A stretch of DNA of 18,796 nucleotides from the NCBI GenBank assembly GCA_052168235.1, contig JBQLZK010000018.1, forward strand, positions 85,943-104,738. Reading direction: 5' to 3'. Every line of letters starts with the position of its first letter. Positions within the stretch are counted from its first letter, which is position 1. Made by a program: the position numbers and the translations under genes. The notes below the pieces were generated by a model that had not been told where the DNA came from, did not search any database, and worked only from the letters and a program-made list of their open reading frames with translations. Of the stretch, positions 1-18,096 are shown piece after piece. This DNA comes from Thainema sp. (GTDB taxonomy: Bacteria > Cyanobacteriota > Cyanobacteriia > Phormidesmidales > Phormidesmidaceae).

Positions 1-1284
1 TCCAATCAGCCGATAGCGTCGTTGTGCCTGTTGGGTTTCCAACCAACTGGGCTGTATGCGCTCAATCAGTAGCTCTACCGTGTTGGTTTGCTGCAACTGC
101 CGTGCCAGCCAGCGGAGTGTTCGTTCGGTTTGTCGCCAGTTGGGTTCTTGGTCAGGTGTTTTGTATGCCCAATCTCGTTTTTCTAGGTCATTTCGGCGCA
201 CTTTCGGCGATATCTGCCGATCAATGTACTGGTTCAGCAAATCTGCTTTGGTTTTAAACGGATGCTGCGGGTCATAAACCTCGGCTGCCAGATTCACAAA
301 CAGCGGAATCCGCAACAGTCCTGGCTCACCGTCTGGGGTTGGTTCCAAGAACTTTTGCAATTCTGGGCTTTTCTGAATCACCGACCACAGTGGCGACTGT
401 TGTGTTTCTAAATAGGCTTGGATTTGCTCGTCTGATAATGGCTGTAGGCTTACGGCTCCCCGCAGCGTATTGAGCTTGATATTAGCCTGGGTAAATTCCT
501 TTACCCGACAGCACACCACCAGTTTGGGATAGTGCTTGGCAAATTCATTCAGCTTCAGCATACATTTCTGCTGTCGCACCAACCCCAACTCATCTAAACC
601 ATCCATCAGCGGCAGCAGCACTTCCTGATCCAACCATTGTTCGTAAATCTTGGCTTTGCGATTGCCGTTGTGCTGCTCATAGAGCTGTTCAATCAGCCAA
701 TCGCGAATGCTCTGGTTGTCGTTCCGCCAGGTCGAAAGTTCAAACAGCACCGGAATCACCGTTTGCGGTTTCGCCAATGCTCCACAGACGAGCTGTTCGG
801 CTAAGCTCAGCAGTGCTGTGGTTTTACCCGCTCCTGGTGTACCCAAAATCAGCAGCTTGCCAGCAATATCTTCTCGGCCAAAGGTTTCAATCAAAAGCTG
901 TCGCGGGTCAATTTCGCCCTGTGGTTCTCCCTGTACCTGCAACTCTCGCTTCGCTTCCAGCAGAGAACGCCCCACACAATCCATCTGCTCGTTCAGGTCA
1001 ATCGGAATTAAGGCTCTATCTCGCCCCAGGGTATCCATCAACCGCTTATGAATTTCCGGCAGTTGCTTGTCCTGAAGTAGCTGATGCGCCCACCGCCAGT
1101 TAACTTCAGACGATGCAGTCTGACCACCAAACCATCTCAGAATGACATTGGTGATGGTGATTTGATTATCGTGGCTATTTTGAAAACTAAGGGTGTCTCG
1201 TCCCGCCTGAGTGAGTTGAATTTGGCTGTCTGCAATCTGGCTGTTCTCAATGTTCTGATCCTGATTCTGATCCTGTGATGCCAT
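1..1284 (-). CDS. NACHT-family (NLR-like STAND) NTPase with Q/N-rich N-terminal motif; 3' end lies outside the window
   Basis: Not in the ORF track. Manual translation from ATG 1284 gives 428 open codons: MASQDQNQDQNIENSQIADSQIQLTQAGRD... It has Walker A LLILGTPGAGKTT (GTPGAGKT at 820-843), IPVLFELSTW, Walker B LLPLMDGLDE (~589-618), VVCCR, LQPLSDEQI, LRIPLFV and ELLIERIQPSWL, all typical of cyanobacterial NACHT proteins. Confidence 0.92.
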   Translation of the reverse strand, partial: MASQDQNQDQNIENSQIADSQIQLTQAGRDTLSFQNSHDNQITITNVILRWFGGQTASSEVNWRWAHQLLQDKQLPEIHKRLMDTLGRDRALIPIDLNEQMDCVGRSLLEAKRELQVQGEPQGEIDPRQLLIETFGREDIAGKLLILGTPGAGKTTALLSLAEQLVCGALAKPQTVIPVLFELSTWRNDNQSIRDWLIEQLYEQHNGNRKAKIYEQWLDQEVLLPLMDGLDELGLVRQQKCMLKLNEFAKHYPKLVVCCRVKEFTQANIKLNTLRGAVSLQPLSDEQIQAYLETQQSPLWSVIQKSPELQKFLEPTPDGEPGLLRIPLFVNLAAEVYDPQHPFKTKADLLNQYIDRQISPKVRRNDLEKRDWAYKTPDQEPNWRQTERTLRWLARQLQQTNTVELLIERIQPSWLETQQAQRRYRLIG

Positions 1285-1326
1285 GTTCTGCGGGTATCCT
1301 GCACACCATCTCTTTGCTTAAATCGC

Positions 1327-1797
1327 TCACACCCCAAAAAAGGCTGCCGCAACGCCAATCCAGGGGGCAACGGCTTTAAAGATTTCTGCTCCGGTTTGCC
1401 ACAGACTTTTACCTGCTTCGCTGGTTTCCTGTAAGGTCTTTATAGTTTCACTAACCTGCTTCAGGTTTTGTCCCACCAGTTCTTTTTGCGGATTTTCCTT
1501 GGCCGCTTCCCGCTTGGCCGGACGCAAATAGTCCAGCAGTTCATCTCGTACAGCCCCATCAATCGCTGCGCCTTTGATTTCTGCCTCCAACTTGTCTAGT
1601 AAGCTCACAACTTCAGCACCCGTAATGCTTTGCTGAGTTTGCAAATCCCCGGATTGATTCTGCTGCAAATCTCGTCCCGCTTGTCCCATTTGCACCATGC
1701 CGCCCGTAATACTTGTGCCGCTGATACTCTGCGATTGGTCGGGCTTACCCGATTTTGATGGTTCTGGAGGCTGTTTACCAAACAATTTGCCAATCAT
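1327..1797 (-). CDS. Small protein with N-terminal Q/S/G-rich QAGRD motif and C-terminal helical domain ending in a hydrophobic helix; putative NACHT partner/effector
   Basis: ORF track 1327..1854. ATG 1797 (MIGKLF) is preferred; ATG 1842 is possible. It ends 42 nt before the NACHT ATG on the same strand. C-terminus is LWQTGAEIFKAVAPWIGVAAAFFGV. Confidence 0.8.
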   Translation of the reverse strand: MIGKLFGKQPPEPSKSGKPDQSQSISGTSITGGMVQMGQAGRDLQQNQSGDLQTQQSITGAEVVSLLDKLEAEIKGAAIDGAVRDELLDYLRPAKREAAKENPQKELVGQNLKQVSETIKTLQETSEAGKSLWQTGAEIFKAVAPWIGVAAAFFGV

Positions 1798-1914
1798 GTT
1801 TTTCTTGCCAAACGATTTTTGTCCATCATAGGCAACGGCCATCGGAAGTGCCAAAGATAATTCGCAGTGTTAACCTTCAGCCTTTTTTGATTCAGCCTTA
1901 AACTTAAGCAGCGA

Positions 1915-2439
1915 TTAATACAGCCAGCTTTGATACTCCAGTGCTTCCTCTTTCATGTCCTCATAAAGCCACACCATCCGGTCGAGAAACCACAGTTTAC
2001 CTGCATAAATCAAGCCGCTGCCAAACAGCGTCGGCCAAATTTGTAGTGCCGCCACGCCCCAGACTAAAAACGGGATGCCCAGCGCCGCCACTAGATTGAG
2101 GATGGTTGCCATTTGTTGATGATGAGCCGGAATTGGAACTTGGTCTTGATTTAATAGCACTCGTTCCCCAAGCACTGCTTTAGAAGCCCAGTTATCCGTC
2201 GATATAGGCCGCTCGAACAGCCTGGGATTGAGCCACATCCAGAATAATGCTGCTGCGATCGCAAAAATCGACCATATTCCCAACCATATCCGCGACCACA
2301 GAGCCAAAATCAATAGGGGTAAAACAGTGTTTCGCGTCCAAACACTCCAAGGATTAGCGTGCCGCTGCCATACTTCATCCGACATCGCAAAAGAAGCTGC
2401 TATTTGCTGACGCAGGCGGTGTCCAAGTGTTTTAGCCAT
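1915..2439 (-). CDS. DUF6653-like integral membrane protein
   Basis: Motifs MSDEVWQRHANPWSVWTR, WLNPRLF, NWASKAVLGER and GKLWFLDRMVWLY, plus several hydrophobic helices; family recognised from memory. Confidence 0.75.
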   Translation of the reverse strand: MAKTLGHRLRQQIAASFAMSDEVWQRHANPWSVWTRNTVLPLLILALWSRIWLGIWSIFAIAAALFWMWLNPRLFERPISTDNWASKAVLGERVLLNQDQVPIPAHHQQMATILNLVAALGIPFLVWGVAALQIWPTLFGSGLIYAGKLWFLDRMVWLYEDMKEEALEYQSWLY

Positions 2440-2717
2440 TATTCAAATACCCTAAATCAACTGAATCCTGTGTATAGCTGCGTTCTAACGGTATGACCAA
2501 CAGGAATTGAACCACGATGAAGCAGATCTACAACTAAAGACATAGGTTGTGGCCCAGTTATGCATTTACATCGCCACAAGATCTACCTTTCGACGAACGC
2601 CATAGGTGAATAGCATTGTTAAGTTTTATGTTGTGTTGCTCATTTGCGGTCATACCGAATGAGTAGTGCGCTCACCAGATAGATATGAAGCGTAAACATC
2701 GTTTAAGGACATTTTTT

Positions 2718-3377
2718 ATGAAGCGACTAGCAACCACAGCGGTTACCAAAAAAATCTTAGCCGGAATTTTAACGCTCGGCACCGTAGTTACAGTGTCAGC
2801 TTGCGCATCAGAGCAGGATACAGTCACGACTGCTCCTACAACTGAGGATCCTGCTGCAGTTGATGATGCAAATACAGCAGAAGAGCCAATGGCTAGCGAT
2901 ATGGAGACCGATGCCGCGGCCAACGGTTCGATTGTTGAAGTTGCATCCAGTGCAGGATCATTCAATACTTTAACGCAGGCTATTGAGGCTGCTGGGCTGA
3001 CTGAAACCCTCTCTCAAGATGGTTCTTCCTATACCGTGTTTGCCCCAACGGACGAAGCCTTCAATCAACTGCCGGAAGGAACGCTGGATCAACTGCTACT
3101 GCCAGAAAATCAGGAGCTACTCCGTCAGATTTTAACCTACCACGTTGTGCCGCAGGCAGTCACGTCCAGTGAAATCCAACCTGGCGAAGTTAGCACCGTT
3201 GAGGGTTCTCCAGTTAACCTCCAGGTTGATGGCAGCAGTGTCATGGTCAACGAAGCAATGGTAACTCAACCAGACATTGAAGCTAGCAATGGTGTAATTC
3301 ACGCCATTGATCAGGTCATTCTGCCACCACAGATTGCTGCTCAGTTAACGGGAGCAGGCGCAGGTAGCGAAGGATAA
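2718..3377 (+). CDS. Fasciclin (FAS1) domain lipoprotein
   Basis: FAS1 motifs YTVFAPTDEAF, ILTYHVVP and ASNGVIHAIDQVILP; signal peptide with lipobox VSAC; acidic linker. ATG 2718 follows AAGGA (ORF track start is 2685). Confidence 0.92.
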   Translation: MKRLATTAVTKKILAGILTLGTVVTVSACASEQDTVTTAPTTEDPAAVDDANTAEEPMASDMETDAAANGSIVEVASSAGSFNTLTQAIEAAGLTETLSQDGSSYTVFAPTDEAFNQLPEGTLDQLLLPENQELLRQILTYHVVPQAVTSSEIQPGEVSTVEGSPVNLQVDGSSVMVNEAMVTQPDIEASNGVIHAIDQVILPPQIAAQLTGAGAGSEG

Positions 3378-3411
3378 GCTCTCTACTAGCTTGGCACTCC
3401 TCAATGAGTTT

Positions 3412-3440
3412 AAAAGGCACGCAGAGCGTGCCTTTTTCTT
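3412..3440 (+). terminator. Intrinsic terminator of the fasciclin gene (possibly bidirectional)
   Basis: AAAAGGCACGC-AGA-GCGTGCCTTTTTCTT hairpin with T tract, 35 nt after the stop. Confidence 0.85.
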
Positions 3441-3481
3441 TATATAGCTATAGCTGTAGTTCAACTCTGTTGGAGCGTGGA

Positions 3482-3518
3482 CGTTGTTGTAGCGTGGCCA
3501 AGTCGCGCTACAACAATG
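3482..3518. repeat. REP-like palindromic element
   Basis: TTGTTGTAGCG (3484-3494) and CGCTACAACAA (3506-3516) are perfect inverted arms, with a GTAG...CTAC signature. Confidence 0.5.
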
Positions 3519-3743
3519 ACTGAACCAGTATGACTAGTTATCGCTTTTGCGATCGCTCATATTCAACCGTGCATTTTCATCGTTGGAGAGATGGTAGTTG
3601 TCTCACTGTCTCAGTTTTAAGGTGTGGTAGGCATAGCTCCACCCTACTTCGTGGATTTTAGGTTAGAGCACAGATTGTTATGAGCTGTGCTGTGCAATGA
3701 CTTGTATAGGAGAGTCTGGCTATCGTGCGGCAAGAACAACACT

Positions 3744-3789
3744 AAAAAAGCGAGGGGAATGCGTCTTTGAGACGCATTCCCCTCGCTTT
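3744..3789 (-). terminator. petBD intrinsic terminator / 3' stem-loop
   Basis: Perfect 20-bp inverted repeat (3747-3766 / 3770-3789) with a 3-nt loop, ending in T6 on the minus strand, 27 nt downstream of petD. Confidence 0.88.
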
Positions 3790-3816
3790 AGTTGCAAGTT
3801 TAATTATGATGACTAC

Positions 3817-4299
3817 TTAGAACAAACCCAGGGTCAGAGACTCTCTGATGGGGAATGTTGCGCCAATTCCGAGCCACAGTGTTACCAACGTACCAAACAT
3901 GAATACGGTGGTCGCAACTGGACGACGGAATGGATTTTGGAACTTGTTGACATTCTCAATGAATGGTACAAGCATCAGACCTAGAGGAATTGCAGTTTGC
4001 AACGCAATTCCCAGCAGCTTGTTAGGAACAATCCGCAGAATTTGGAAAGCGGGATAGAGATACCACTCTGGCAAAATCTCTAGCGGTGTTGCAAACGGGT
4101 TAGCTGGCTCGCCCACCATTGCAGGATCAAGTACAGCTAAGGCTGTAACACAAGCAATCGTACCCAGAATAACGACTGGGAACACGTACAACAAATCGTT
4201 GGGCCAAGCTGGCTCACCGTAGTAGTTGTGACCCATACCACGCTTTAGCTTCTCGCGTAGTTTCGGATCAGCTAAATTCGGCTTTTTCAAAGTTGCCAT
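3817..4299 (-). CDS. petD: Cytochrome b6f subunit IV
   Basis: [27 protein letters not shown] and NPFRRP; 160 aa; downstream of petB. Confidence 0.99.
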
Positions 4300-4418
4300 A
4301 GCTTATTCGGTGTTCTCCTTAAAGACCAGTAGGACGAAATAAACGCGCTTCATAAGCTGATTCGTTTCTTAAAGCGTACAGATCTCTCAACAGGAATCTG
4401 CTCGCTGGTAACCGTATT

Positions 4419-5087
4419 TTACAAGGGACCGGAGATGCCTTGCTTACGGATCATCAAGAAGTGAAGCAGCATAAAGACTGCGATCAGCCAGGGCAATACA
4501 AATGTATGCAGGCTGTAGAAGCGGGTTAAAGTCGGCTGTCCGACGCTGACACCACCACGCAGCAGTTCAACCATGAACGAACCCACAAATGGAATCGCCT
4601 CAGGTACACCAGATACGATCTTGACCGCCCAGTAACCAACTTGATCCCAAGGCAAGGAGTATCCAGTTACACCAAAGGAAACCGTGATGACAGCCAGGAT
4701 GACGCCAGTAATCCAGGTCAACTCACGGGGCTTCTTGAAACCACCCGTCAAGTAAACGCGGAAAACGTGCAGGATCATCATCAGCACCATCATGCTGGCT
4801 GACCAGCGGTGAATGGAGCGAATGAGCCAACCGAAGTTAACGTCGGTCATCAGATATTGGACAGAAGAAAATGCTTCGGTGACGGTCGGCTTATAGTAGA
4901 ACGTCATAGCGAAGCCCGTTGCAAATTGGATGAGAAAACACGTTAGCGTAATTCCACCCAAGCAGTAAAAAATATTGACGTGGGGAGGAACGTATTTGCT
5001 AGAGATATCATCCGCAATGGCCTGAATCTCTAGGCGTTCCTGAAACCACTGATAGGGTTTTGAATCTGTAACCTGCTTTGTAAACAT
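4419..5087 (-). CDS. petB: Cytochrome b6
   Basis: [15 protein letters not shown] (heme cn Cys), [17 protein letters not shown] and RKQGISGPL; 222 aa. Confidence 0.99.
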
Positions 5088-5490
5088 GAAGCGAGCGTTC
5101 CGAAGAAATCATTGCTGTTCAGTAAAAATGTAACATAGCTCAACGCTAAATGAATGCGAAGTCAGTCCTTGATTTACGCGGCTTGTATCAAGGCATATCA
5201 GCGTTGCACTAGCTTATTTGTACTCCGCTTATGTAAAGACATGACTGCTCAAAACCCGTCAATATAGTGCTCCAGCAACCTTGACAAACTGCTCAAACTC
5301 GTGACGGAGTAGACGTTTGCAAGGATTTTAAGCAAAATTAAGGAATCTAATTTTTCTCATAAACGCACTCATTTGTTAACACTACTTAACAGTTTGAGCG
5401 CTGCATGGTCTTGTTTGCGCCTTCAGCGGTAGCTTGTCCATTGCATCTGAGCTGTTTGGGAAGAGAATTAAACAGGTTAAGATCGTCAGC

Positions 5491-6732
5491 ATGATTAGGA
5501 AACTGCTTCATACCGGACTTTTAATATTCCTTGTTGCGCTCTGTTCGTGGGGATGGGCAACGCCGTCAGCTTTGGCCTTTACAGATGAGCAAAAGCTAGT
5601 GTCTGAGGTCTGGCGGATTGTGAATCGGGCTTATTTAGACGAAACATTCAACGGTCAGAACTGGTGGTTTGTGCGCCAGCGGATGTTACGCAAGTCAATG
5701 CGCGATCGCGAAGAGGCTTATGGGGTGATTCAGGACATGCTGGCGATGCTGAATGACCCCTATACGCGTCTGCTCAAGCCCAAGCAGTACCGGACGCTGC
5801 AAACAAATACCTCGGGAGAACTCACTGGGGTTGGGTTGCAAATTGCCCAGGATGATGAGGGCTATTTGCGGGTGATTGCGCCGATTGAGGGGTCGCCCGC
5901 CGAGGATGCTGGGATTCAACCCCGCGATCGCATTACTCAAATCAATGGCTTTCCAACCCGCAACTTGACGTTAGATGAAGCGGCGGATCGGATGCGGGGG
6001 CAGGTTGGCACGATTGTGACGCTGACGGTGGAGCGAAACGAGCAGGCTCCGTTTGATGTCAATCTCAAGCGCGATCATATTGTGCTGAATCCGGTTTACG
6101 CTGATTTGCGATCGCAGTCGGACGGCAGCAAGATTGGCTACATTCGCCTGAATCAGTTCAACGGCAATGCGGCCTCGGAAATGGCCAGTGCGCTGTCTGA
6201 TTTGGAAAAACGAGGGGCAGAATCCTACATCTTGGACTTACGCAATAATCCAGGCGGGTTGCTCCAGGCGGGGGTTGAAATTGCTCAGCTTTGGCTGGAT
6301 GATGCGCCAATTGTGTACACCGTGAATCGTCAGGGCATGATGGGCAGTTTTCAGGCAGCTGGTCAGGCGGCAACCCATGCGCCGCTGGTTGTCCTGGTCA
6401 ACGGTGGCACCGCCAGCGCCAGTGAGATTCTGGCTGGAGCACTACAGGATAACGGGCGAGCGGAACTGGTTGGTGAAACGACATTTGGGAAAGGTCTAAT
6501 CCAGTCGCTGTTCGACCTTTCCGATGGGGCGGGTTTAGCGGTGACGATTGCCAAGTATGAAACACCTAGCCATCGCGATATCAATAAATTAGGCATCACG
6601 CCGGATCATGCTGTGTCGTCAGAGCTGATCAGTCGCGCTCAATTTGCCACACCGGACGATCCGCAGTATCAGGCCGCTGTAGACCTGTTAACGGAAAAAT
6701 CTCTCGTTGCTGCGGAGCCAGCGTCACGCTAA
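5491..6732 (+). CDS. ctpA: Carboxyl-terminal processing protease (S41A; D1-processing CtpA type)
   Basis: Signal peptide, PDZ region (GVGLQI), LDLRNNPGG, catalytic TASASE and TFGKG; divergent from petB as is common in cyanobacteria. ATG 5491 is preferred over TTG 5434. Confidence 0.9.
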   Translation: MIRKLLHTGLLIFLVALCSWGWATPSALAFTDEQKLVSEVWRIVNRAYLDETFNGQNWWFVRQRMLRKSMRDREEAYGVIQDMLAMLNDPYTRLLKPKQYRTLQTNTSGELTGVGLQIAQDDEGYLRVIAPIEGSPAEDAGIQPRDRITQINGFPTRNLTLDEAADRMRGQVGTIVTLTVERNEQAPFDVNLKRDHIVLNPVYADLRSQSDGSKIGYIRLNQFNGNAASEMASALSDLEKRGAESYILDLRNNPGGLLQAGVEIAQLWLDDAPIVYTVNRQGMMGSFQAAGQAATHAPLVVLVNGGTASASEILAGALQDNGRAELVGETTFGKGLIQSLFDLSDGAGLAVTIAKYETPSHRDINKLGITPDHAVSSELISRAQFATPDDPQYQAAVDLLTEKSLVAAEPASR

Positions 6733-7991
6733 TGAAACCCATCCAGAGCCGCACCTATCACGACCCGTTACATGGTGCGATCGCACTGGATGGTAGTGAC
6801 CCCACCGAAGCGCTAATTATTCAACTGATTGATACGCCTGCCTTTCAGCGACTGCGGCGCATTCGCCAGTTGGGGCCAGCCAGTTTTACCTTTCATGGAG
6901 CTGAAGCGTCACGGTTTACTCATTCTCTGGGAGTGATGGCCGTGGCGCGTCGTGCATTTGACGGCATTGTTGAACGCTATCCGTCTCTCAAACCCCATCG
7001 CGCTACCGTTCTCTGTGCGGCATTGCTGCATGACGTGGGGCACGGGCCGTTTAGTCACACGGCTGAAGATGTGTTTAGTACGGAACATGAACACTGGACA
7101 GCCCAGATTTTGCAGCATTCGCCGCCCGTGCGCCAGCTGCTCGACCAGTTTTCCCCTGGTTTATTAGAATCCATTCTCCAGGTTTACCAGCATCAGCATT
7201 CTGTGCCGCTGGTCTGGCAGCTGGTGTCCAGCCAGTTGGACTGCGATCGCTTGGACTATCTCATGCGCGATAGCTACTTCACCGGGGCTGCCTACGGTCA
7301 GCTTGATCTAGACCGCATCCTGATGGCGATGCGCTACGACCCGGTGAGCCAGCAACTGGCGGTTGCCCAGAAGGGACTCGCGGCGATTGAGCACTACCTG
7401 ATGGTACGGCACTTTATGTACGCCCAGGTCTATAGCCATCCCAAAAACATTGCAGCAACCTGGATGCTTTGCCAGTTATTTAATCGGGCGCGATCGCAAC
7501 TCCAGTCCGGCCAGTTAGACACCGACGAAACGATGCGGGCCTGGATGCAGCAGCCCCAGCAGTCGCTGAGCCTCAAACACTATTTAGCTGCCGATGACAT
7601 GGTGTTGCTCTACCATCTGCACCGCTGGCAGCAGCATGCCGATCCGGTCTTGTCGGATCTCTGTCGGCGCTATCAAGACCGAGATTTGTTAAAGGCCAAG
7701 GACATTACCCATCGCTCACTGGCGGATCAGACGGCACTGCTCCAGCAGGTTTACCGCGAACTAGAGCAGCGAGGCTGGTCGGCTAAGTACTACGCTGGAC
7801 TCCAGCAGTCTCTCAGTCGGGGCTACACGCTGTATCACCACGGGATTAAGGTGCAGACTCCGAGCGGGCTACAGGAGCTGAGTCTGCTGTCTAAGATTGT
7901 CCATACGCTGGCCCAACCGATTCATCGCACCTGGTTGATTTATCCGCGTGAGGTGGAGAGTAAATTGACGGGACTGTTGCGGGATTATTAG
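6732..7991 (+). CDS. HD-domain phosphohydrolase, SAMHD1/YwfO-like dNTP triphosphohydrolase family
   Basis: DPLHG, FQRLRRIRQLG, SRFTHSLG, LLHDVGHGPFSH, EHE and QLDCDRLDYLMRD; TAATG overlap with ctpA. Confidence 0.9.
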   Translation: MKPIQSRTYHDPLHGAIALDGSDPTEALIIQLIDTPAFQRLRRIRQLGPASFTFHGAEASRFTHSLGVMAVARRAFDGIVERYPSLKPHRATVLCAALLHDVGHGPFSHTAEDVFSTEHEHWTAQILQHSPPVRQLLDQFSPGLLESILQVYQHQHSVPLVWQLVSSQLDCDRLDYLMRDSYFTGAAYGQLDLDRILMAMRYDPVSQQLAVAQKGLAAIEHYLMVRHFMYAQVYSHPKNIAATWMLCQLFNRARSQLQSGQLDTDETMRAWMQQPQQSLSLKHYLAADDMVLLYHLHRWQQHADPVLSDLCRRYQDRDLLKAKDITHRSLADQTALLQQVYRELEQRGWSAKYYAGLQQSLSRGYTLYHHGIKVQTPSGLQELSLLSKIVHTLAQPIHRTWLIYPREVESKLTGLLRDY

Positions 7992-8011
7992 TATCATAAA
8001 TTCTCAAATCC

Positions 8012-8704
8012 CTACAGTAAGGGTGTTTGGGTGCGGAGCTGCTGGAGGTTGAGTTGGGCAAGTTGGGTGTAGGCATCTGCGATCGCAGCTTCGCCGCGCA
8101 GGAATCCGGTATTGGCACCGGGACAAATCCACTGCAAGGTTTCAGACGAAAACTCGTTGAGAATCCGCTCAACCTGCTGAAGCTGGCGCGGCCAGTGAAA
8201 GGTTTTGGCGATGCGCAGGGGTTCTGGAGCACCTTTACGATTGGGCAGCAGATGCCGTCCGGTGAATAGAATGCCGCCGTAACGGTTATAAAAGACGCAG
8301 GCTGAACCGGGTGAATGTCCGGGTGTCCAAAAAACGCGGACGGTATCCGTCACCGGAAATTCTTGCTCAAAGCTTGTAACAGTCAATCCCGGCAGAAGGT
8401 AAGCCTCTTGCTCTTGCACCACAATTTCGCACTGGAAGGCTTGTTGCAGAGCCGCCACCTTGCCATGTCCGCCCCGATGGGTGAGAACCAGCCAGCGCAC
8501 TCCCCCCTGATTGTGCAAGAATTCCCATATCTGCTCATTCTCAGCCGGACAGTCAATCAAGACATTGCCAGTATTGCCTAAAATAAGATAGGCGGTTCCT
8601 CCCATCGTGTCGCGATTGGGTGGAAAAGAATAAACCAATTCAAAAATTGGGCGCGGCAGTTTTCCTTTAGCTGATGCGGAAGTTGAGGATGGGGTGACGG
8701 ACAC
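8012..8704 (-). CDS. Metallo-beta-lactamase-fold protein (cyanobacterial type, degenerate metal motif)
   Basis: FPPNRDTMGGTAY, NVLIDCP, LVLTHRGGH, WTPGHSPGS and LFTGRHL. Start uncertain: GTG 8704 chosen, ORF track gives 8791. Confidence 0.8.
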   Translation of the reverse strand: MSVTPSSTSASAKGKLPRPIFELVYSFPPNRDTMGGTAYLILGNTGNVLIDCPAENEQIWEFLHNQGGVRWLVLTHRGGHGKVAALQQAFQCEIVVQEQEAYLLPGLTVTSFEQEFPVTDTVRVFWTPGHSPGSACVFYNRYGGILFTGRHLLPNRKGAPEPLRIAKTFHWPRQLQQVERILNEFSSETLQWICPGANTGFLRGEAAIADAYTQLAQLNLQQLRTQTPLL

Positions 8705-9329
8705 AAGCGACCTTGATAACTCGTATGGAACATCCAGTTGAAAAACCCAATGTTTAGTGTGCAATGCGTAGATGACGCGCATGTTGCACACAGGTTAGGT
8801 TTCACAAGCGGATTCTGTATCAGTATACAGTCAGGTTTTGCCTCCAGGTTTGGCTCAGTTAATGTAGGTTGGATGTGATTTTGAATGAGTGCGGCATTAA
8901 TGCTAAAGCGAGGAGCAGCTAGTGTGACAACGTTAAGCAAAAAGCAAGCTAAGTGACGGATAACGAGAAAGTGCGCTGTTTTTGATTAAAATGTGAGCAT
9001 TTTGCAGTGACATCTAATTCATCGAACGCCTTATCTAAAATAAAGTCTTATCTAAATCTTCTATAAGTAGAACTTTTACAAGTAGAACGTAGCTATTCGG
9101 TGACTTATCCAAACTGTATTCAACAACACAACAGTCTATAGAACAGCTTATAGATTACGTCTGATTAGAAGACATACGTCAAAATAAAAGAGAAGCTGCC
9201 ACACTATCAGCCTGTATGAAGCCCAAAATTAATTTCATTTGTGCCAGTTTGTCCCCTAGCGTTTCGTTCGTCCAGCCCCATACGGGAGCATGTAGTTGCT
9301 ATTTTCCGAGAGTGCCTAAGGTTTAAGTC

Positions 9330-10808
9330 ATGATTTTTTTAATATTGCTGCTCTTACTCGGAATATACGCCTACGTGATTGTTTGGCGCAGCTTTTCGCA
9401 GCTAACCCGGACTCCTATCTGGTTGCTGTGGCTGGTGATGATGATGCCTGCGTTGGTGCTAATGGGTTGGGCGATCGCAAATGGCGACAATCAGCAATCC
9501 TTTCCACTGCCGCTGTTGCTGGGCCTGCTGATTCTCTGTCCGACCCTGTTCTGGTTTTTGATCCAACTGGGGCGAGTCTCGCCGGAACAAATTCGTCAGT
9601 TTCAGGAGCAGCAGCAGCGAGAAATTGCTGAAAAGCTGGCGGAAAAACGGCCCAAAGTTAAACCAATCAATCGAGAAGAAGAAGCGAGCCTGCGCCACTG
9701 TTTTCCTTGGACGGTCTATTACCTGCAAAACTTAGAGTATCGGCCTCAAGCCGTGATCTGCCGGGGACAACTCCGATCGTCGCCTGAAATTGCCTATCGC
9801 ACGATTCGCGAGAATATCGAGGCAAAATTTGGCGATCGCTTTTTGGTGGTGTTTCAAGAAGGCAATAACCGCAAACCCTTTTTTGCGCTGGTTCCCAATC
9901 CCCAAAGCCAGTCCAAGTCGGCTAAACAGCAGCAAACCTTAACTCGTCCCGGTCTAGCTCTGGGTTTGCTGGCGATCACTTTGATTACAACCGCCTGGGC
10001 AGGCATGCAGATTGCAGGTTTTACTCCTGCCGAATTTCAGGATAATCCAGGCTCAATTCAGCAGGGCATTCCCTATGCACTGGCCCTGATGACGATTCTC
10101 GGCATTCACGAGATGGGGCATTATCTGGCGGCCCGCTACTACCGCATTCAAACCACGCTGCCCTACTTCATTCCGTTTCCGTTTTTCTTAGGCACGTTTG
10201 GCGCATTTATTCAAATGCGATCGCCAATTCCCAACCGTAAATCATTATTTGACGTTGGCCTGGCAGGGCCTCTATCCGGCTTCATTGCCACGCTGCCGCT
10301 GCTGTTCTGGGGACTCGCCCATTCCGAAGTAGTGCCAATGTCGGATGAGGCCAGTTTGCTAAATTTTGAAGCATTTAATCCCGGTAACTCGCTACTCATC
10401 GGTGTACTGACTAAACTGGCTCTCGGCAGCGCAATCACGGCTGAGCAAGCGATTTATTTACATCCGGTTGCCATAGCCGCCTGTTTGGGCCTAGTCGTCA
10501 CAGCACTCAATTTGATGCCTGTCGGTCAGTTAGACGGTGGTCACATTGTTCACGCGATGTTTGGTCAAAAAGTTGGCGCTAGAATTGGTCAGACGGCTCG
10601 CTTTTTGATGCTGGGTTTATCGTTTGTCCAGCGTGAGTTTTTCCTATGGGCAATTTTGCTCTTTTTGATTCCGGCTGTGGATGAACCAGCCTTGAATGAT
10701 GTGAGTGAGCTAAATGATCAGCGCGACTTTTTGGGACTACTGGCACTGACGATTTTAGTTTTGATTGTTTTGCCGATTCCTCCAGCGCTGAAATCAATCC
10801 TATTCTGA
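9330..10808 (+). CDS. Site-2 (M50) intramembrane zinc metalloprotease, EGY-like
   Basis: HEMGH, GTFGAFI, FDVGLAGP and LNLMPVGQLDGG; multiple TM helices. Confidence 0.93.
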   Translation: MIFLILLLLLGIYAYVIVWRSFSQLTRTPIWLLWLVMMMPALVLMGWAIANGDNQQSFPLPLLLGLLILCPTLFWFLIQLGRVSPEQIRQFQEQQQREIAEKLAEKRPKVKPINREEEASLRHCFPWTVYYLQNLEYRPQAVICRGQLRSSPEIAYRTIRENIEAKFGDRFLVVFQEGNNRKPFFALVPNPQSQSKSAKQQQTLTRPGLALGLLAITLITTAWAGMQIAGFTPAEFQDNPGSIQQGIPYALALMTILGIHEMGHYLAARYYRIQTTLPYFIPFPFFLGTFGAFIQMRSPIPNRKSLFDVGLAGPLSGFIATLPLLFWGLAHSEVVPMSDEASLLNFEAFNPGNSLLIGVLTKLALGSAITAEQAIYLHPVAIAACLGLVVTALNLMPVGQLDGGHIVHAMFGQKVGARIGQTARFLMLGLSFVQREFFLWAILLFLIPAVDEPALNDVSELNDQRDFLGLLALTILVLIVLPIPPALKSILF

Positions 10809-10818
10809 GGTTTGGGTC

Positions 10819-11352
10819 ATGAATGAGCGACAACAGCAATCGTCAATGCAGCATGGGGTAGCCCAGTGGCTGGCAGAAATTAGGCTGTTGCAAAATCAGT
10901 TAGCGACTGCTCGTCAAGAACGGGATGAATCCTTAAAAAGTGCAGCCAATTGGCGACAGCTTTATGAAACGGAAGCTAAGCAGCGCCGCACGGATACAGC
11001 ACTGAAGCAGCAGCAAATTGATCAGCTTCAGGCTGAGCTAGCCCAGTATCACGGCAGTCACCATAACGGCAGTCAAGGCAGCCAAGCCGATGGTCAAGCG
11101 CGATCGCAACTGGAACTCGAACAGAACCTGGCTCATCTCAGCGATACCGATCTCAAACAGCGTCTAATTGAAGCCCTGCAAGATTGCGATCGCTTACGCC
11201 AAACTCTCCAAAAAGAACGGGACGAACATATTCAAACCCGCAAAAGTTTGACTAGTGCCCTGGGAGATGCGGTGGATCAGCTCACTCGCGCCCGTCAGCT
11301 CAATCATTCTGTTGCGACTCATTCCCTGAGTTCAGACCAATCGGCTGAGTAA
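10819..11352 (+). CDS. Hypothetical coiled-coil protein
   Basis: 177-aa Q/E/R/L-rich helical ORF starting 10 nt after the M50 stop; motifs WRQLYETEAKQRR and HIQTRKSLTSALGDAVD. Confidence 0.8.
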   Translation: MNERQQQSSMQHGVAQWLAEIRLLQNQLATARQERDESLKSAANWRQLYETEAKQRRTDTALKQQQIDQLQAELAQYHGSHHNGSQGSQADGQARSQLELEQNLAHLSDTDLKQRLIEALQDCDRLRQTLQKERDEHIQTRKSLTSALGDAVDQLTRARQLNHSVATHSLSSDQSAE

Positions 11353-11370
11353 GTAGATTGGCATCAATCC

Positions 11371-14300
11371 TCAAGCGAAAAGCGTATCCACTGCATCCGC
11401 GCTCAGCGGTTTAGAAAATAAATAGCCCTGTCCAAAGTGGCAACCCAGTTGCTTGAGCTGGGCAAACTGCTGCTTTGTTTCAATGCCTTCTGCGATCGCA
11501 TTGAGTCCTAACTGGTGACTGAGAGAGATGATGGTCTTGGTGATTTGCAGATGAAATGGGTCATGAATATCCTTGACAAACGACTTGTCAATCTTCAAGT
11601 TGTTCACAGGCATCCGGTGCAGATAGCTTAGTGAAGAGTAGCCTGTGCCAAAATCATCAACGCTAATTTGAATGCCCAGATTTTGCAGTTGCTTGAGCTT
11701 GTCAATTAGATCGAGTGAGCTTTCAACTAATAAACTTTCGGTTAGTTCCAGCGCGACATAGTTCGGTGGTAGACCTGTGCGCTCCAAAATATCTTGAATT
11801 TGCGGCACCACTGCGGGCATTTTGAGCTGCCGAACCGATACATTGATGCTGATTTTGAGAGTATGGGCGGCTTTGTGTCGGCGTCGCCAATTCATCATTT
11901 GCTGACAGGCCGCTTCCAGAATCCAGAGGCCCAATGGCACAATCAGTCCTGTATCCTCGGCGACGGGAATAAAATCGGAGGGTGAAATGAGACCATGCAG
12001 TGGATGTTGCCAGCGCAGCAGCGCCTCAAACCCCGTCAATTCCCCAGATTCAATCGCCACAATGGGCTGATAGTGCAGGAAAAACTCGCCGTTTTCCAGG
12101 GCTTTACGTAAATCTGTTTCCAAATGGAGCCGCTTGAGGACAGTCGTGTGCATGGAGGGCGTAAACACCATGTAGTGGTTCTTGCCGTTTGCTTTGGCTT
12201 GATACATGGCCAAGTCGGCATCGCGCAGCAAACTCTGAGGGTTGTGATACGAGTCCTGACCATACACAATGCCAATGCTGACGGTTGCGAACAGTTCATA
12301 ATCCTCAACCAGGATGGGCTGTTGAAAGACTTGCGAGATTTGCTCAGCCAGGATCAACGGCTGATTTTGGTTATCGATAAAGGTCGATAGAATGACAAAC
12401 TCATCGCCTCCCAGGCGAGCTAGAAAATCATTGGCGGACACTAGGCTTTGCAGCTTGCGGGCAATCATACACAGCAGCTGATCGCCAACGGGATGGCCCA
12501 AGCTGTCGTTGATCACCTTGAATTCATCAATGTCTAAAAAAAGAACCGCAAACGCTTGGTCGGGATGAGTGGGTGATTGGGCAAGGGTTTGTTCGAGCCG
12601 CTCCAGTAAAAAACTACGGTTGGGTAAGCCTGTTAATGAGTCGTGGCGAGCGTCATTCAGGAGTTGAGTTTGAAATTTGACCCGTTCCGTTACATCGCGC
12701 GCCGTCGTTTGATAGCCCACAACTTGCTGGTCTGCGGCCAGAATGGGTTTGACCAGCGTTTCGAGCCAAATGTAGTCACCATTTTGGTGGAGCATTCGAT
12801 GGTAGGTAACGGGGGCGGATTCCTCGCCGACCGTTGCCTGTTGAATCGCTTGCTGTAGTGTAGGCCAGTCATCTGCATGACAAAATTTTGTGGGTTGCTG
12901 ATTAATGAGCTCCTGTGGGTTATATCCCAGTAGGGTTTGACAAGACGGACTGACGTAGCTGTAGCTGTTGTCCATGCGATGCAGGCAAACCAAGTCGCGC
13001 ATGTTGTCGGCAACAATCCGATACAGTAATTCGCTCTGACGCAGTGCTGCTTGAGTGAGCTTGTGTTCTGCGATCTCCATTTGGGCTTGCTGGTAGAGGG
13101 CAGCCTGATGAACTGCGATCGCAACTTGAGTGGCCAACTGCTGGAGCAATTCGCTTTCCCACGTTTGCCACTGACGGGAATGGCGGCACTGGTGAACAAC
13201 CAGTAATCCCCACAAATTGTCTTGATGCAAAATTGGCACGACTAGCTTTGACTTCACCTGGATGTGCCGCAGCGTTTCCCGCAGGCATTCCGACATCTCA
13301 TCCTGCTCAACGTCGGTCACACAGCGCACTCGACCCTGGCGATACATCTCGTAACACTCTAGCGGAAACATATCGGGCGGTAGCGGCTGGGGCAGAATGG
13401 CGGTGCAGTCTGCTGCCACTGATTCGGTGATTATCTGGCCTGCGCCATCCGGATTGGTGCGATAGGTGACAACCCGATCGGCCTGGAGAAGTTGGCGCAC
13501 TTCGGCCACGGTTGTATCGAGGATTTCGGTGAGATCTAGCGACTGGCGAATTCGATGTGCGATCGCATTGACGATCTGTTCCCGCTCTTGCTGTTTGCGG
13601 CGGAATTCCTCAGTCTGCTTCCGCTCGGTGATATCAACGCCAATGCCCGTAATTTCAAACAGTTCACCCTGCTTATTGAAATGATTGATCGAACTCCAGG
13701 CAATCACCCGCTTTTCCCCTTGCCGAGTCGTGATCGTCATCTCGTAGTTCGTGACTTGCCCTTGTTCAGCAAAGTCCCGATACATTTGCTCAACCTGGCG
13801 ATAGTCATCACCGGGATACAAAATTTGCAGCCAGTTTTGGCCCAGCAGCTCGTCTGCTGTGTATCCAGTTATTTCATAGGTTGCCGGATTGGCAAATTTC
13901 GTAGTGCCGTCCGGCGCAATGCTCGCAATCAAAAGCGGTGCTGTGGTCACAATGTGATCTGTAAACTCCCGCGCCTCCGCTAACGCGGTCTGGATCTGCT
14001 TGGCCTCCGTAATATCATGGCGAATTGCCACATACTGAACTGGCTGTCCTTGGTCATCGACAAACGGCACAATTGTGATGTCAACCCAGTAGTAGCTGCC
14101 GTCCTTTGCTCGATTTTTGATCTCGTTGTGCCAGACTTTTCCACTAGAAATGGTTTGCCACATGTCCTGGAAAAAGGCTTTGGCATGATACCCAGAATTA
14201 ATGATGCGATGGGTTTGCCCGATCAGCTCTGCTCGGGAATACTGGGAAATTTCGCAGAATTTGTCGTTGACGTAGGTGATCCGTCCGGCTGCATCCGTAA

Positions 14301-15246
14301 TCGCGACGATAGAAGACTGATCCAGCGCAAACTTAATATTCGATGCTTCTTGCAGCGATCGCTGCAACCGCGCCTCTGTTTGCTTTTGCTGCGTCACATC
14401 GCGTGTGATCGCCAAATGCGCCCAGCGCCCTTCAGGCATTATCGGCAAAGGCGTCGCATGAGTTGACATAGATCGCCGATTTCCGCGACAGGTAATAATG
14501 TCGAACTCCAGCGTGCCCGATTCACCCTGACAAATCCGCTGATTCAATGCCTTAAACGCAGCTCGATCTTCCGGTGCGATTAAGCAATAAATTGATTCAC
14601 CAATCACCTCTTTGGCATCGGTTGCCTCAATTAACGCTAACCCAGCAGGATTCATATCTAGCAGAATGCCATTGGCATCAATAATTTTGAGGCACTCTGG
14701 CTGATTTTCAATAATGTTATGAAGGCGTTTTTCTTGCTGCGCTAGGATAGCCGCGCGCTTACGCAATTCCAACTGACTGACGATTTGACGACTGAGAATT
14801 TGTAGCGTTTCGATCTGTTCAGCCGTGACTGTCCGGGGTACATAGTCCATCACGCATAGGGTGCCAATCCGACAGCCATTGGGTGCAACCAGTGGAATCC
14901 CTGCGTAGAAACGAAATGGCAGGTTCTCTGCAACGAGTGACTGGGACGCAAATCGCGAATCAATTGCTAAATTTTCGACAATCAGTGGCTCATCCGAGCG
15001 AATGGCATGGTGGCAGCAGGTTGCTTCTCTGGGCATTTCCGAATGATTGAGCCCAACTTTTGCCTTGAACCACTGACGAGTTTGATCCGAGAGGCTGATC
15101 AGCGCAATTGGTGTTTGACAAAAGGTGGCGGCCAAACGGGTGAGATCATCAAATTCAGGTTCCGCACCAGAATCTAAAACGTCGTAGTCACGGAGTGTTT
15201 GTTGCCTTTCTTGTTCTTCAAGATCGTTTCGAAAGGACATTGGCAT
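11371..15246 (-). CDS. Multi-sensor c-di-GMP cyclase/phosphodiesterase: GAF-PAS-PAS-PAS-GAF(cyanobacteriochrome)-PAS-GGDEF-EAL
   Basis: GAF (RFYAGIPL, GTLCVMD); four PAS/PAC units ending in DVT/DIT; second GAF (ADRVVTY, LWGLLVVHQC); HDSLTGLPNR and ARLGGDEF; EALLRW, DDFGTGYSS and AEGIE. Confidence 0.95.
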   Translation of the reverse strand: MPMSFRNDLEEQERQQTLRDYDVLDSGAEPEFDDLTRLAATFCQTPIALISLSDQTRQWFKAKVGLNHSEMPREATCCHHAIRSDEPLIVENLAIDSRFASQSLVAENLPFRFYAGIPLVAPNGCRIGTLCVMDYVPRTVTAEQIETLQILSRQIVSQLELRKRAAILAQQEKRLHNIIENQPECLKIIDANGILLDMNPAGLALIEATDAKEVIGESIYCLIAPEDRAAFKALNQRICQGESGTLEFDIITCRGNRRSMSTHATPLPIMPEGRWAHLAITRDVTQQKQTEARLQRSLQEASNIKFALDQSSIVAITDAAGRITYVNDKFCEISQYSRAELIGQTHRIINSGYHAKAFFQDMWQTISSGKVWHNEIKNRAKDGSYYWVDITIVPFVDDQGQPVQYVAIRHDITEAKQIQTALAEAREFTDHIVTTAPLLIASIAPDGTTKFANPATYEITGYTADELLGQNWLQILYPGDDYRQVEQMYRDFAEQGQVTNYEMTITTRQGEKRVIAWSSINHFNKQGELFEITGIGVDITERKQTEEFRRKQQEREQIVNAIAHRIRQSLDLTEILDTTVAEVRQLLQADRVVTYRTNPDGAGQIITESVAADCTAILPQPLPPDMFPLECYEMYRQGRVRCVTDVEQDEMSECLRETLRHIQVKSKLVVPILHQDNLWGLLVVHQCRHSRQWQTWESELLQQLATQVAIAVHQAALYQQAQMEIAEHKLTQAALRQSELLYRIVADNMRDLVCLHRMDNSYSYVSPSCQTLLGYNPQELINQQPTKFCHADDWPTLQQAIQQATVGEESAPVTYHRMLHQNGDYIWLETLVKPILAADQQVVGYQTTARDVTERVKFQTQLLNDARHDSLTGLPNRSFLLERLEQTLAQSPTHPDQAFAVLFLDIDEFKVINDSLGHPVGDQLLCMIARKLQSLVSANDFLARLGGDEFVILSTFIDNQNQPLILAEQISQVFQQPILVEDYELFATVSIGIVYGQDSYHNPQSLLRDADLAMYQAKANGKNHYMVFTPSMHTTVLKRLHLETDLRKALENGEFFLHYQPIVAIESGELTGFEALLRWQHPLHGLISPSDFIPVAEDTGLIVPLGLWILEAACQQMMNWRRRHKAAHTLKISINVSVRQLKMPAVVPQIQDILERTGLPPNYVALELTESLLVESSLDLIDKLKQLQNLGIQISVDDFGTGYSSLSYLHRMPVNNLKIDKSFVKDIHDPFHLQITKTIISLSHQLGLNAIAEGIETKQQFAQLKQLGCHFGQGYLFSKPLSADAVDTLFA

Positions 15247-15674
15247 TTACCCTAGGCGACGAAAACAGCCTATTTGCCTCAGAAGCTCCGGCAATACTAC
15301 TGATCGGCAAGTATGCTATCCCCTCATTAATCCCTATTTTTGCCTTGCTCCAACAGAACCATAAGACACTTAACAACGCCAACAGCTCACGCCTGGGGAT
15401 TGCGTCGTATTCTTACTCATATTCTTAATCGTATGCTGGGCCGTATAGCTTGCACCTGGCCAATTAACTCACAGGGTCGATCTCGTTCGATCACAAATGT
15501 AATCGGTAGACTACTCTCCTGTGCCTTGCTAGGCTAGAAGCCGAAACGGCCCTTTCGCGGGACACAGTGGAATAACCGTTTCATACACAATCTGCTGATC
15601 AAACCAGTTTTTATTTGGGTTTTTCTTTAGCTGAATTTAGATCCGCTTCTGATACAGGCTGTGAGTTGATAAAG

Positions 15675-17270: not shown

Positions 17271-17281
17271 TTTTTGTAGCC

Positions 17282-17362
17282 TTTGTAAGTTGAGTACAAC
17301 GAAATGAAACCAACGATTCCGAGGAATTATTAAGTCTTGTATACTCGACGCCAACTTACAAA
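17282..17362. repeat. Degenerate REP doublet (REPIN-like) between convergent genes
   Basis: Terminal inverted arms TTTGTAAGTTG (17282-17292) and CAACTTACAAA (17352-17362). The left unit GTAAGTTGAGTACAACGAAATGAAACCAAC resembles the GTAGGTTGGG...GAAACCCAAC repeats I recall from cyanobacteria. Confidence 0.45.
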
Positions 17363-17412
17363 AGCGAAACTAGACCCTACAACAGAGTCTAGGAATATAC
17401 CCTGTTGTTAAT

Positions 17413-18096
17413 CTAAAATATTTGCTTTTTCAAATTTATTAGAGCATTTTCGGCAGCCTGTTTTTCCGCTTCTTTCTTATTTCGGCCTTTACCTTCACCA
17501 CAAAGTTTTTCATTTACGTAAACCTTAGCCGTGAATTCTGGTTCATGATCTGTACCACCTGTTTTTTCCGTTACATATTTAGGTGGAGAAGTTGCGCCAT
17601 TAGCTTGAGCAAGTTCCTGAAATTTGTTTTTAGAGTCTACGCTTGAACGTACTATAACAACGTTTTTAGGAACGGAATTGAATAATTCCTCTATAAGTGG
17701 ACGAAGCACTTCAATATTTTTATCGTGATCTAAATAATAGGCACCTACAACAGCTTCAAAGGTACAACTTAATAAGTTGGGATTGTGATAACCACCTTCT
17801 TTAATTGCACCCTGTCCTAGGCGCATTCTAAAATCTAGTCCAACTTCAGTTGCAAATCGAGCCAGCTGTTTTTCATCAACAAGAGCTGATCTCCGGCGAG
17901 TCATTTCATCTTCTTCCATCTCCGGATAAATTTTGTATAAATACTCACCGCTAATGAAATTCAAAATAGCATCGCCAAGAAACTCTAATCGTTCATTATG
18001 ACCTGCTTCTTCAGGATTTTCATTAACATAGGAGCGATGAGTCAATGCATGGCGCAATAGCTTCTCATCATTAAATTTCAATAGTTTGTGCATCAC
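17413..18096 (-). CDS. rnc: Ribonuclease III (probable accessory paralog) with dsRBD
   Basis: ALTHRSY, signature NERLEFLGDAIL, TFEAVVGA, and C-terminal dsRBD (KNKFQE...GKGRNKKEAEKQAA). Start at GTG 18096 or ATG 18093. Confidence 0.93.
   Translation of the reverse strand: MMHKLLKFNDEKLLRHALTHRSYVNENPEEAGHNERLEFLGDAILNFISGEYLYKIYPEMEEDEMTRRRSALVDEKQLARFATEVGLDFRMRLGQGAIKEGGYHNPNLLSCTFEAVVGAYYLDHDKNIEVLRPLIEELFNSVPKNVVIVRSSVDSKNKFQELAQANGATSPPKYVTEKTGGTDHEPEFTAKVYVNEKLCGEGKGRNKKEAEKQAAENALINLKKQIF

Follow-up and report, generated by a model that had tools for sequence, protein, structure and literature searches.

A conserved N-terminal tag common to a cyanobacterial NACHT protein and its small neighbour: a candidate amyloid-like signalling pair

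Short sequence motifs that recur in two neighbouring proteins couple receptors to effectors in several described signalling systems. In bacteria, a BASS motif recurs at the C-terminus of a Bell protein and at the N-terminus of the nucleotide-binding oligomerization domain (NOD)-like receptor (NLR) encoded next to it. BASS motifs have approximately 25 residues, with much Q, N, G, V, and I and little K, P, and L; BASS1 and BASS2 occur in Actinobacteria alone and BASS7-10 in Cyanobacteria alone, and BASS1 is reported to form amyloid in vitro (Dyrka et al., 2020; bioRxiv 10.1101/2020.01.06.895854). Such motifs lie at the N-termini of NLRs and at the C-termini of execution proteins, and in the fungal NWD2/HET-S system the N-terminal motif of the NLR templates the motif of an adjacent helical protein, whose buried hydrophobic helix is thereby directed to the membrane (PMC7889193). 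The Bab/Agp system of Escherichia coli, with the motif BASS11, consists of two genes, acts against phages by abortive infection and has one amyloid motif in both of its proteins (bioRxiv 10.1101/2024.11.07.622273). Coupling by duplicated elements is also known from effector-associated domains (EADs), of which one copy sits on a core NTPase and another on the adjacent effector, the adjacent copies being closest to each other (Kaur et al., 2020; PMC7159879). Here we describe a pair of genes at one end of an 18,796-nucleotide stretch of DNA from the cyanobacterium Thainema sp. (NCBI GenBank assembly GCA_052168235.1, contig JBQLZK010000018.1, positions 85,943 to 104,738), hereafter the window. A NACHT NTPase and the small protein encoded just upstream of it, which we call the partner, begin with a similar Q-rich stretch, hereafter the tag. 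A sequence-only reading had proposed them as a candidate NLR-amyloid signalling pair. The common tag probably serves as a handshake in a pathway of cell death or defence like those of fungi and actinobacteria, and we lean towards a homotypic, amyloid-like coupling motif that would link an NTPase sensor to a membrane-directed partner.

All features of the pair lie on the minus strand, on which a DUF6653 gene, the small partner open reading frame (ORF) and the NACHT ORF are arranged head to tail. The NACHT gene (1..1284) begins MASQDQNQDQNIENSQIADSQIQLTQAGRD and is present with its first 428 codons, after which it runs off the window edge. The partner gene (1327..1797, stop codon included) encodes 156 residues from ATG 1797, belongs to a conserved cyanobacterial family, and its translation contains QSQSISGTSITGGMVQMGQAGRD. 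That this ATG rather than TTG 1854 is the start is most likely, because homologues start at the same position and a promoter-like site overlaps the TTG. The site itself, TTGGCA-18-TATGAT at 1825..1854, is a consensus match only, since two such sites were found where 2.2 are expected from shuffled sequence. The two genes are separated by 42 nt (1285..1326), from the partner stop at 1327 to the NACHT ATG at 1284, and no terminator-like site was found in this spacer. The orientation and spacing of the genes are thus as first described, and so are the two 21-residue stretches, QNIENSQIADSQIQLTQAGRD of the NACHT protein at 1257-1195 and QSISGTSITGGMVQMGQAGRD of the partner at 1731-1669, which align without gaps and with 9/21 identities. 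No further similarity had been noticed; BLASTP extends the match to 34 residues, of which 12/34 are identical (E 0.003). On the NACHT side the motif belongs to a conserved N-terminal tail of residues 5-48 (1141..1272; alignment of 26 sequences), in which it is followed by a segment SFQNSxDNQ[VI]TI. On the partner side it lies in a Q/S/G/N-rich N-terminus of residues 1-55 (1633..1797), predicted to be disordered. The tag as a whole, on N-termini that would be cytoplasmic, covers about 35-45 residues in both proteins around a core [VI]-Q-[LMQ]-x-Q-A-G-[RG]-[DN]. It consists of 21.6% Q, 12.6% S, 12.4% G, 7.5% V, and 6.7% N, with 0.8% K and 0.1% P; L is reduced to 6.2% from 14.3% in the remaining parts of the proteins, and I is not enriched (4.7% vs 5.4%).

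Two low-complexity, Q-rich N-termini may resemble each other by chance, and the window by itself gives only a borderline match: 9/21 identities were reached by 19/300 shuffles of the whole small protein, and by 8/2000 shuffles confined to the N-termini. The doubt is removed by the comparative data, in which the pair and its motif recur. A scan with one genome per species gave 38 loci of the small gene (loci are numbered L001-L050, and family representatives carry P-numbers). A NACHT homologue, 41-77% identical to that of the window, stands directly downstream on the same strand in 34/38. Three of the remaining four (L008, L032, L035) are cut by a contig end less than 600 nt from the small gene. 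The proposal that adjacent NACHT and small proteins have a specific N-terminal motif in common holds throughout this set: both genes encode the motif at 34/34 loci, and both are intact in 31, the others having in-frame stops in both genes (L009) or a frameshift between the motif and the NACHT domain (L029, L037). The spacer between the genes ranges from 22 to 419 nt (median 87.5; 26 orthologous loci). When the ORFs of the 38 loci were clustered, the two pair families occurred in 34 and 29 loci and the next commonest neighbour family in seven, so that no third gene was found to be conserved with the pair, and the DUF6653 gene was syntenic with it in 0/38 loci.

The pair is kept or lost together. 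The locus with stops in both genes (L009:6875-9600) looks like a joint loss: stops interrupt the small gene at codons 15 (TAA) and 33 (TAG) and the NACHT gene at codon 17 (TAG), the latter gene also decaying beyond approximately codon 522. Two of these three early stops replace conserved Q codons within the shared motif. At L029:5152-5450 and L037:8250-8390 the tag stretch is in another frame than the NACHT body, by frameshift or assembly error. A different arrangement is seen at L016:891-4561, with two tandem NACHT paralogues (62% and 42% identical to that of the window) after one small gene; the second paralogue also begins with a tag (VQIAQAGENL).

Adjacent tags also resemble each other more than tags drawn from different genomes, as the sequence-only reading had suggested checking. 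In 32 pairs of the chromosomal family (the window and 31 loci), the motifs have on average 9.81 identities within a genome and 8.87 across genomes, a difference reached by 1/20000 permutations; for BLOSUM scores of the same pairs it was 0/20000. The residue after VQ is matched in 32/32 pairs, being L or M in both proteins (I in one small protein) or Q in both. At L034 and L036 both tags have been remodelled alike (GGSGQQVQAGRDAIATQ and GGDGQQTQAGRDAIALQ), with 19/34 and 15/34 identities. Gene conversion was considered as a cause of this similarity and rejected: codons at identical residues are identical in 132/312 cases within a genome and in 3539/8761 across genomes, thus no more often within, which indicates that the similarity is kept by selection at the protein level. 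In the NACHT tree the Nostocales form one clade and Chamaesiphon another; since the tree follows taxonomy, the chromosomal pair looks vertically inherited.

The same principle extends to paralogous systems on plasmids. A tblastn search of plasmids with the partner gave 16 records, of which 12 were analysed; the other four (H27, H29, H33, H35) come from the same strains or species and have scores like those of analysed records. In 12/12 of these loci the next same-strand gene after the tag-bundle gene begins with a tag of the same class, at a distance of 4-13 nt in eleven. Three classes occur: VQIGGxAGRD, GGxQAAxGxxNxQ, and VQGDNNRAVQGDNNQAVLGDNN. All downstream partners of the VQIGGxAGRD class are NACHT proteins (L039, L040, L045, L050). 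L041, carried by the Nostoc sp. PCC 7120 plasmid pCC7120epsilon, represents the GGxQAA class. In the QGDNN-repeat class the downstream partners are a NACHT protein (L042), a TRADD-N and pentapeptide protein (L043), a protein without known domain (L044), an FGE-sulfatase protein (L046, L047), a 43-residue fragment (L048), and an iSTAND protein followed by a MoxR and a GUN4 protein (L049). Over 18 systems (these 12 and six chromosomal ones), Smith-Waterman scores average 71.1 within a locus and 39.2 between loci, and 0/20000 permutations reached the former. The matrix falls into blocks by class, and the own partner is first in 6/18 and among the top five in 17/18; it is seldom first because loci of one class score alike. 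A core conserved in 32 pairs with matched substitutions, a class-specific match in every paralogous locus and these permutations refute chance similarity, to which we leave a next to negligible probability. Two Acaryochloris plasmids hold damaged copies: at L040:6366-6548 the tag is directly preceded by an in-frame stop and the gene is annotated as starting further downstream, and at L045:5380-7482 three ORFs make up the split NACHT gene. The QGDNN-repeat tag (L042:6376-6580, L046:5376-5560) gave a weak match, below the cut-off of 30 bits, to the beta-roll model LbR_Ice_bind PF21300 (E 3e-5, 24.4 bits). LbR_Ice_bind models the antifreeze beta-roll of grasses.

The Nostoc plasmid holds five consecutive GGxQAxQGxxNxQ-tagged proteins (L041:1536-11394), namely a pentapeptide protein, a NACHT protein, a small bundle protein, a 325-residue protein and a 1302-residue protein, and in two of the five the tag is near the C-terminus. 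This suggests a network instead of a simple pair, in a model strain. A run of equally tagged proteins, some with the tag near the C-terminus, could also reflect a common handler. This third factor (a protease or chaperone, for instance, or machinery for targeting or degradation) would recognise both tags, and the co-variation would track it; both proteins of the pair are likely to be membrane-associated, which would suit it. We nevertheless regard such a factor as very improbable, as no third gene is conserved with the pair and several tag classes coexist in Nostoc with a match inside every locus, a pattern not expected from one shared factor.

The partner itself matched no Pfam or NCBIfam model. 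Its family counts 197 homologues (E<=0.01) of about 147-155 residues, and QAG is invariant in 22/22 aligned homologues. In an AlphaFold2 (AF2) model built with 41 homologues, the predicted local distance difference test (pLDDT) is below 50 at residues 1-42 and 44-53, and residues 60-154 form a four-helix bundle (4HB) with pLDDT >90 (predicted template modelling score 0.60), with helices at residues 60-76, 81-98, 105-125, and 127-147. From the model, profile searches and PADLOC we place the 4HB domain at residues 57-156 (1330..1629). Its end is a hydrophobic tail, IFKAVAPWIGVAAAFFGV, at residues 139-156 (1330..1383; hydropathy and family tails), with a signature [PST]W[LI]G[VA]A..F[FL]G that is conserved in the tails of 150 family representatives. 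Foldseek with the model against the PDB returned generic or designed helical bundles only (best E 0.42), and a profile search of PDB sequences gave the same kind of bundles and no HeLo-, MLKL- or Bab-like match. The PADLOC model PDC-M14B, a candidate defence protein, matched the 4HB at E 8e-8, over the C-terminal 100 positions of the model only. Three identities were tried and dropped. DUF4404 (0.90) and TCAD2 (0.89) were Protein Atlas leads, given up because Pfam did not confirm them; EACC1 is described by Kaur et al. (2020) as a single transmembrane helix with alpha+beta extensions and as mainly actinobacterial.

A profile of the bundle alone, searched against 1.84 billion representative proteins, reveals a wider family of 283 representatives at E<=1e-3 and 136 at E<=1e-10. 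Among 150 listed representatives, 96 are stand-alone proteins (<200 residues) and 54 are longer. The bundle is always C-terminal: in the 138 with a complete profile end, a median of two residues lies beyond the match, and more than 25 in one. The N-terminal parts of 55 long members (>=185 residues) are pentapeptide repeats in 19, CHAT in eight, TIR in three, and AbiTii, TRADD-like N with a helix-turn-helix, PMT and a weak transglutaminase-like match in one each, with no known domain in 21. P0126 is a further CHAT-tag-bundle protein, and PDC-M14B matched four scanned fusion proteins at E 7e-10 to 8e-7. The 45 residues before the bundle are made up of Q (13.4%), S (13.0%), G (12.6%), and N (11.3%) above all, with K, L, and P at 2.9%, 2.8%, and 2.3%. 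Four tag classes were seen among the representatives: the window kind SQSIsISGG..S..Q[IV].QAG[RG]D, VQIGG[IM]AGRD, GGISQ.VSGG...GGMQA.QGDNNQQT, and GFSVGGSVGG.V.NVQGDNNRAVQGDNNQAVLGDNNQVTQ. A crude regular-expression census of 125 representatives left 61 unassigned, many of them visible variants of three classes. Two representatives, P0179 and P0276, are chimeras, with NACHT sequence attached to the tag and half a bundle (its first half); either a deletion may have fused the two neighbouring genes, or these are fragments.

The larger protein of the window is a NACHT STAND NTPase. In scans of the window proteins against Pfam and NCBIfam it matched NACHT PF05729 at residues 145-293 (E 1e-8, 35.6 bits vs a cut-off of 26.7), as did five orthologues. 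Within this match its translation reads GTPGAGKT at residues 148-155 (820..843), a P-loop that we take to be the Walker A motif. Orthologues are 58-77% identical; the full-length ones have about 660-740 residues, and two have about 800. Their layout is tag, NACHT and then, after approximately residue 410, 2-7 hydrophobic segments (23/23 full-length orthologues), in most of which the region consists of GLIxGLIxGL glycine-zipper repeats; the number of repeats and the length of the region vary between species (L001:9840-10400 and other full-length orthologues). By these putative transmembrane helices the protein would sit in the membrane. No WD or TPR repeats were found in the full-length orthologues, in which Pfam shows NACHT alone; the window copy ends at residue 428. 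An end segment ...PWN.ARFL.YC.ERRLL.RVGGRYRF.H, cytoplasmic and nearly invariant, follows the membrane region. The strongly conserved ...GGRYRF[LI]H..L..HFA beyond the hydrophobic region looks to us like the winged-helix signature of STAND NTPases. If this is right, the NACHT module has the membrane segments inserted within it. This arrangement of membrane segments in a NACHT module is category 4 of Kibby et al. (2022; bioRxiv 10.1101/2022.07.19.500537), and the text on category 4 in the available part of that paper describes neither an N-terminal tag nor a partner gene. The AF2 model of the L001 orthologue has a mean pLDDT of 60.9, with about 31 at residues 1-37, 75-89 in the NACHT core and uncertain membrane helices. 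A search of longer proteins with the NACHT N-terminus (1-60) found nothing; this search was weak, since it also missed known relatives of 806-817 residues.

The glycine-zipper region invites the opposite assignment of roles, in which the small protein is a brake: its tag would cap the NACHT tag until displaced, and the toxic element would be the transmembrane region of the NACHT protein. Hydrophobic segments in every full-length orthologue, mostly with many GxxxG repeats, a partner gene that lies upstream and near, and the common decay of both genes in L009, as for a toxin and its keeper, are compatible with this. Yet a tag and bundle fused behind CHAT, TIR or AbiTii fit the delivery of an effector better than inhibition, and the tag also occurs on downstream partners without transmembrane regions (FGE-sulfatase, iSTAND). 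We judge a brake to be quite unlikely.

Compared with the described systems, the pair is closest to BASS/Bell pairs. As in these, the genes are adjacent and co-oriented, a short Q/N/G-rich motif is common to both proteins with the copy of the NACHT/NB-ARC protein at its extreme N-terminus, the other protein is a small helical bundle with a hydrophobic terminal helix, and the systems occur in filamentous cyanobacteria. The composition of the tags also fits the bias of BASS motifs, with Q, N, G, and V raised and K, P, and L lowered, except for I. The suggestion that QAGRD-like cores exist among BASS motifs was correct. In the follow-up paper PMC8086366 the core of cluster C01, which we take as BASS1 because the set sizes match, is ...R[VI]YQAGRDQH[IV]TE, with an exact QAGRD in 9/36 of the C01 rows listed, and cluster C02 has ...V[VI]QARD[IV]HGG. 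BASS1 has the QAGRD core and the hydrophobic residue at -2 in common with the tags described here, but not the Y at -1 or the QH[IV]TE flank, and the signature strings of the window family and of the QGDNN class are absent from the examined part of the BASS data in PMC8086366.

The Bell/BASS architecture as such, which the sequence-only reading had invoked, is not supported. Judged by Pfam, with no match, and by Foldseek, with generic bundles only, the partner is not a Bell protein. The order of its parts is also mirrored, with the motif ahead of the bundle and the hydrophobic helix at the C-terminal end. Where the NLRs of BASS/Bell pairs have TPR or WD repeats, the NACHT protein has transmembrane segments, and so lacks the repeat array of an NLR in the sense of Dyrka et al. 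(2020), which is a NOD with WD, TPR, ANK or LRR repeats. Bab/Agp is like our pair in its two genes and common motif and differs in having a TPR-PIN sensor instead of NACHT and in the C-terminal position of the Bab motif. In HeLo the transmembrane helix is N-terminal and the prion domain C-terminal, and the HET-S motif is a double 21-residue repeat, both unlike the proteins here; no relation of the pair to NWD2/HET-S was found in sequence or fold. PDC-M14 of PADLOC is a partial counterpart at most, as its component B was matched over the C-terminal part only and the NACHT protein matched no PDC-M14 component. A literature search found no paper for the name PDC-M14, and no description of the pair or of the bundle domain, most subscription journals lying outside the search.

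The further comparison of VQMG and IQLT with the RHIM core did not stand, since the G-phi-Q-phi-G core is not kept and the NACHT side is without the glycines. Membership in RHIM/PP/BASS3 was rejected on several grounds: the partner reads G-M-V-Q-M-G, with one extra residue, and the NACHT protein S-Q-I-Q-L-T; in 15/32 pairs both proteins have Q after VQ; and the tail GD.N.Q.N.F of C03 rows is absent here.

The resemblance to EAD systems is of another kind. The tags share the coupling grammar of EAD1-10 (Kaur et al., 2020), together with partner domains iSTAND, TRADD-N, FGS, CHAT, TIR, and pentapeptide repeats; the tag-bearing downstream partners found here, NACHT, iSTAND (with MoxR), FGE-sulfatase and TRADD-N, are core components of the conflict systems of that paper. 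The tag could then be a specific coupling element that is not amyloid, a stoichiometric beta-roll or beta-augmentation or a mini EAD, which would tether the 4HB protein or a fused effector to the NTPase without templating. Such a coupler would match the EAD principle of copies on an NTPase and an adjacent effector, and would go with core components of EAD systems (iSTAND, TRADD-N, FGS, NACHT) as partners. The QGDNN-repeat tag (class 3) resembles a soluble beta-roll, and strong purifying selection and vertical inheritance fit a fixed interface. However, EADs are small globular alpha or alpha+beta domains as described there, whereas the tags are low in complexity and predicted to be disordered, no scanned protein matched a Pfam EAD model, and the composition and QAGRD core of the tags match validated amyloid-signalling motifs. 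We hold a non-amyloid coupler to be rather unlikely, though the most substantial of the alternatives.

The homotypic, amyloid-like coupling motif, which we favour by a little, takes its working model from fungal NWD2/HET-S. A membrane-linked stimulus would activate the NACHT protein, which would oligomerise and so cluster its N-terminal tags. The clustered tags would adopt a beta-arch or beta-solenoid, amyloid-like fold and, as a nucleus, recruit and template the identical tag of the partner. The 4HB would thereby be clustered, remodelled or opened, and its hydrophobic tail could engage the membrane; in the paralogous systems the clustering would instead concentrate a fused CHAT, TIR or AbiTii domain. 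The cell would then cease to grow or undergo regulated death. In this scheme the physical binding of the tags, their cross-beta structure, the direction of the signal, the action on the membrane and the trigger are what we infer from comparison. It is favoured by the tags of both proteins being predicted as disordered beside confidently folded domains, and by the fusion of the 4HB to death and defence domains together with its PDC-M14B match. A complex prediction of NACHT(1-60) with partner(1-62) scored 0.02 and is counted neither for nor against it.

Several observations weigh against this coupling. In every validated amyloid pair the effector motif is C-terminal to Bell or HeLo, and here this is reversed, with the tag central in the fusion proteins. 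At one locus (L030) no NACHT gene neighbours the partner gene, and a convergent unrelated gene takes its place. Q/N/G-rich low-complexity sequence generally inflates similarity scores. Within the chromosomal family, independent events of co-variation are scarce: when the motif is left out of the NACHT tree, the switch from L/M to Q after VQ takes only two changes and gives two independent pairs, fewer than a sign test requires (p 0.5). The R/G position does not co-vary: in seven independent pairs about two changed in the same direction, none in the opposite one and five not at all. Two divergent NACHT types (that of L010-L012 and L028, and that of the window) stand beside a nearly identical partner tag, from which we conclude that specificity within class 1 is loose. 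Finally, the pair is 50-80% identical across orders and follows taxonomy, which is unusual for a defence system; in view of this strong vertical conservation, the chromosomal pair may serve a conserved role in cell death or membrane stress and not a fast-evolving defence.

Taken with the plasmid systems, these data also allow a wider and more tentative reading, which we think possible without counting on it. The tag, the 4HB and the hydrophobic tail could form the receiver of a second, undescribed cyanobacterial family of amyloid type or of mini-adaptors, with a topology the reverse of HeLo and Bell. At least four beta-solenoid-like Q/N/G tag classes would serve as address codes to the N-termini of NACHT, iSTAND, FGS, and TRADD-N proteins. 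The window pair would be an ancient, vertically inherited chromosomal member of it, a membrane-triggered cell-death switch acting through a NACHT module interrupted by glycine zippers. If the tags work as proposed, bacterial signalling by NLR-linked amyloid or homotypic tags is not tied to Bell domains or to C-terminal motifs, and its repertoire gains a receiver domain and several motif classes that are new. One common module would also connect the conflict systems described by Kaur et al. in multicellular bacteria (iSTAND-MoxR, TRADD-N, FGS, NACHT) with the amyloid-signalling paradigm. The system would be tractable too, and one model strain, Nostoc sp. PCC 7120, has a matching locus on its plasmid pCC7120epsilon. 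The vertical conservation across cyanobacterial orders raises the question of a housekeeping role in cell death or membrane stress as against phage defence.

The DUF6653 membrane protein gene directly upstream (1915..2439, minus strand; Pfam E 1.6e-62) is followed by ordinary cyanobacterial housekeeping genes over 2685-18096. These encode a fasciclin protein (2685-3377), petD (3817-4299) and petB (4419-5087), both on the minus strand, an S41 C-terminal peptidase (5434-6732), an HD-domain protein (6732-7991), a metallo-beta-lactamase-fold protein (8012-8791), an M50 peptidase (9330-10808), a PAS/GAF/GGDEF/EAL protein of 1291 residues (11371-15246), a GH10 glycosidase (15615-17270), and RNase III (17413-18096).

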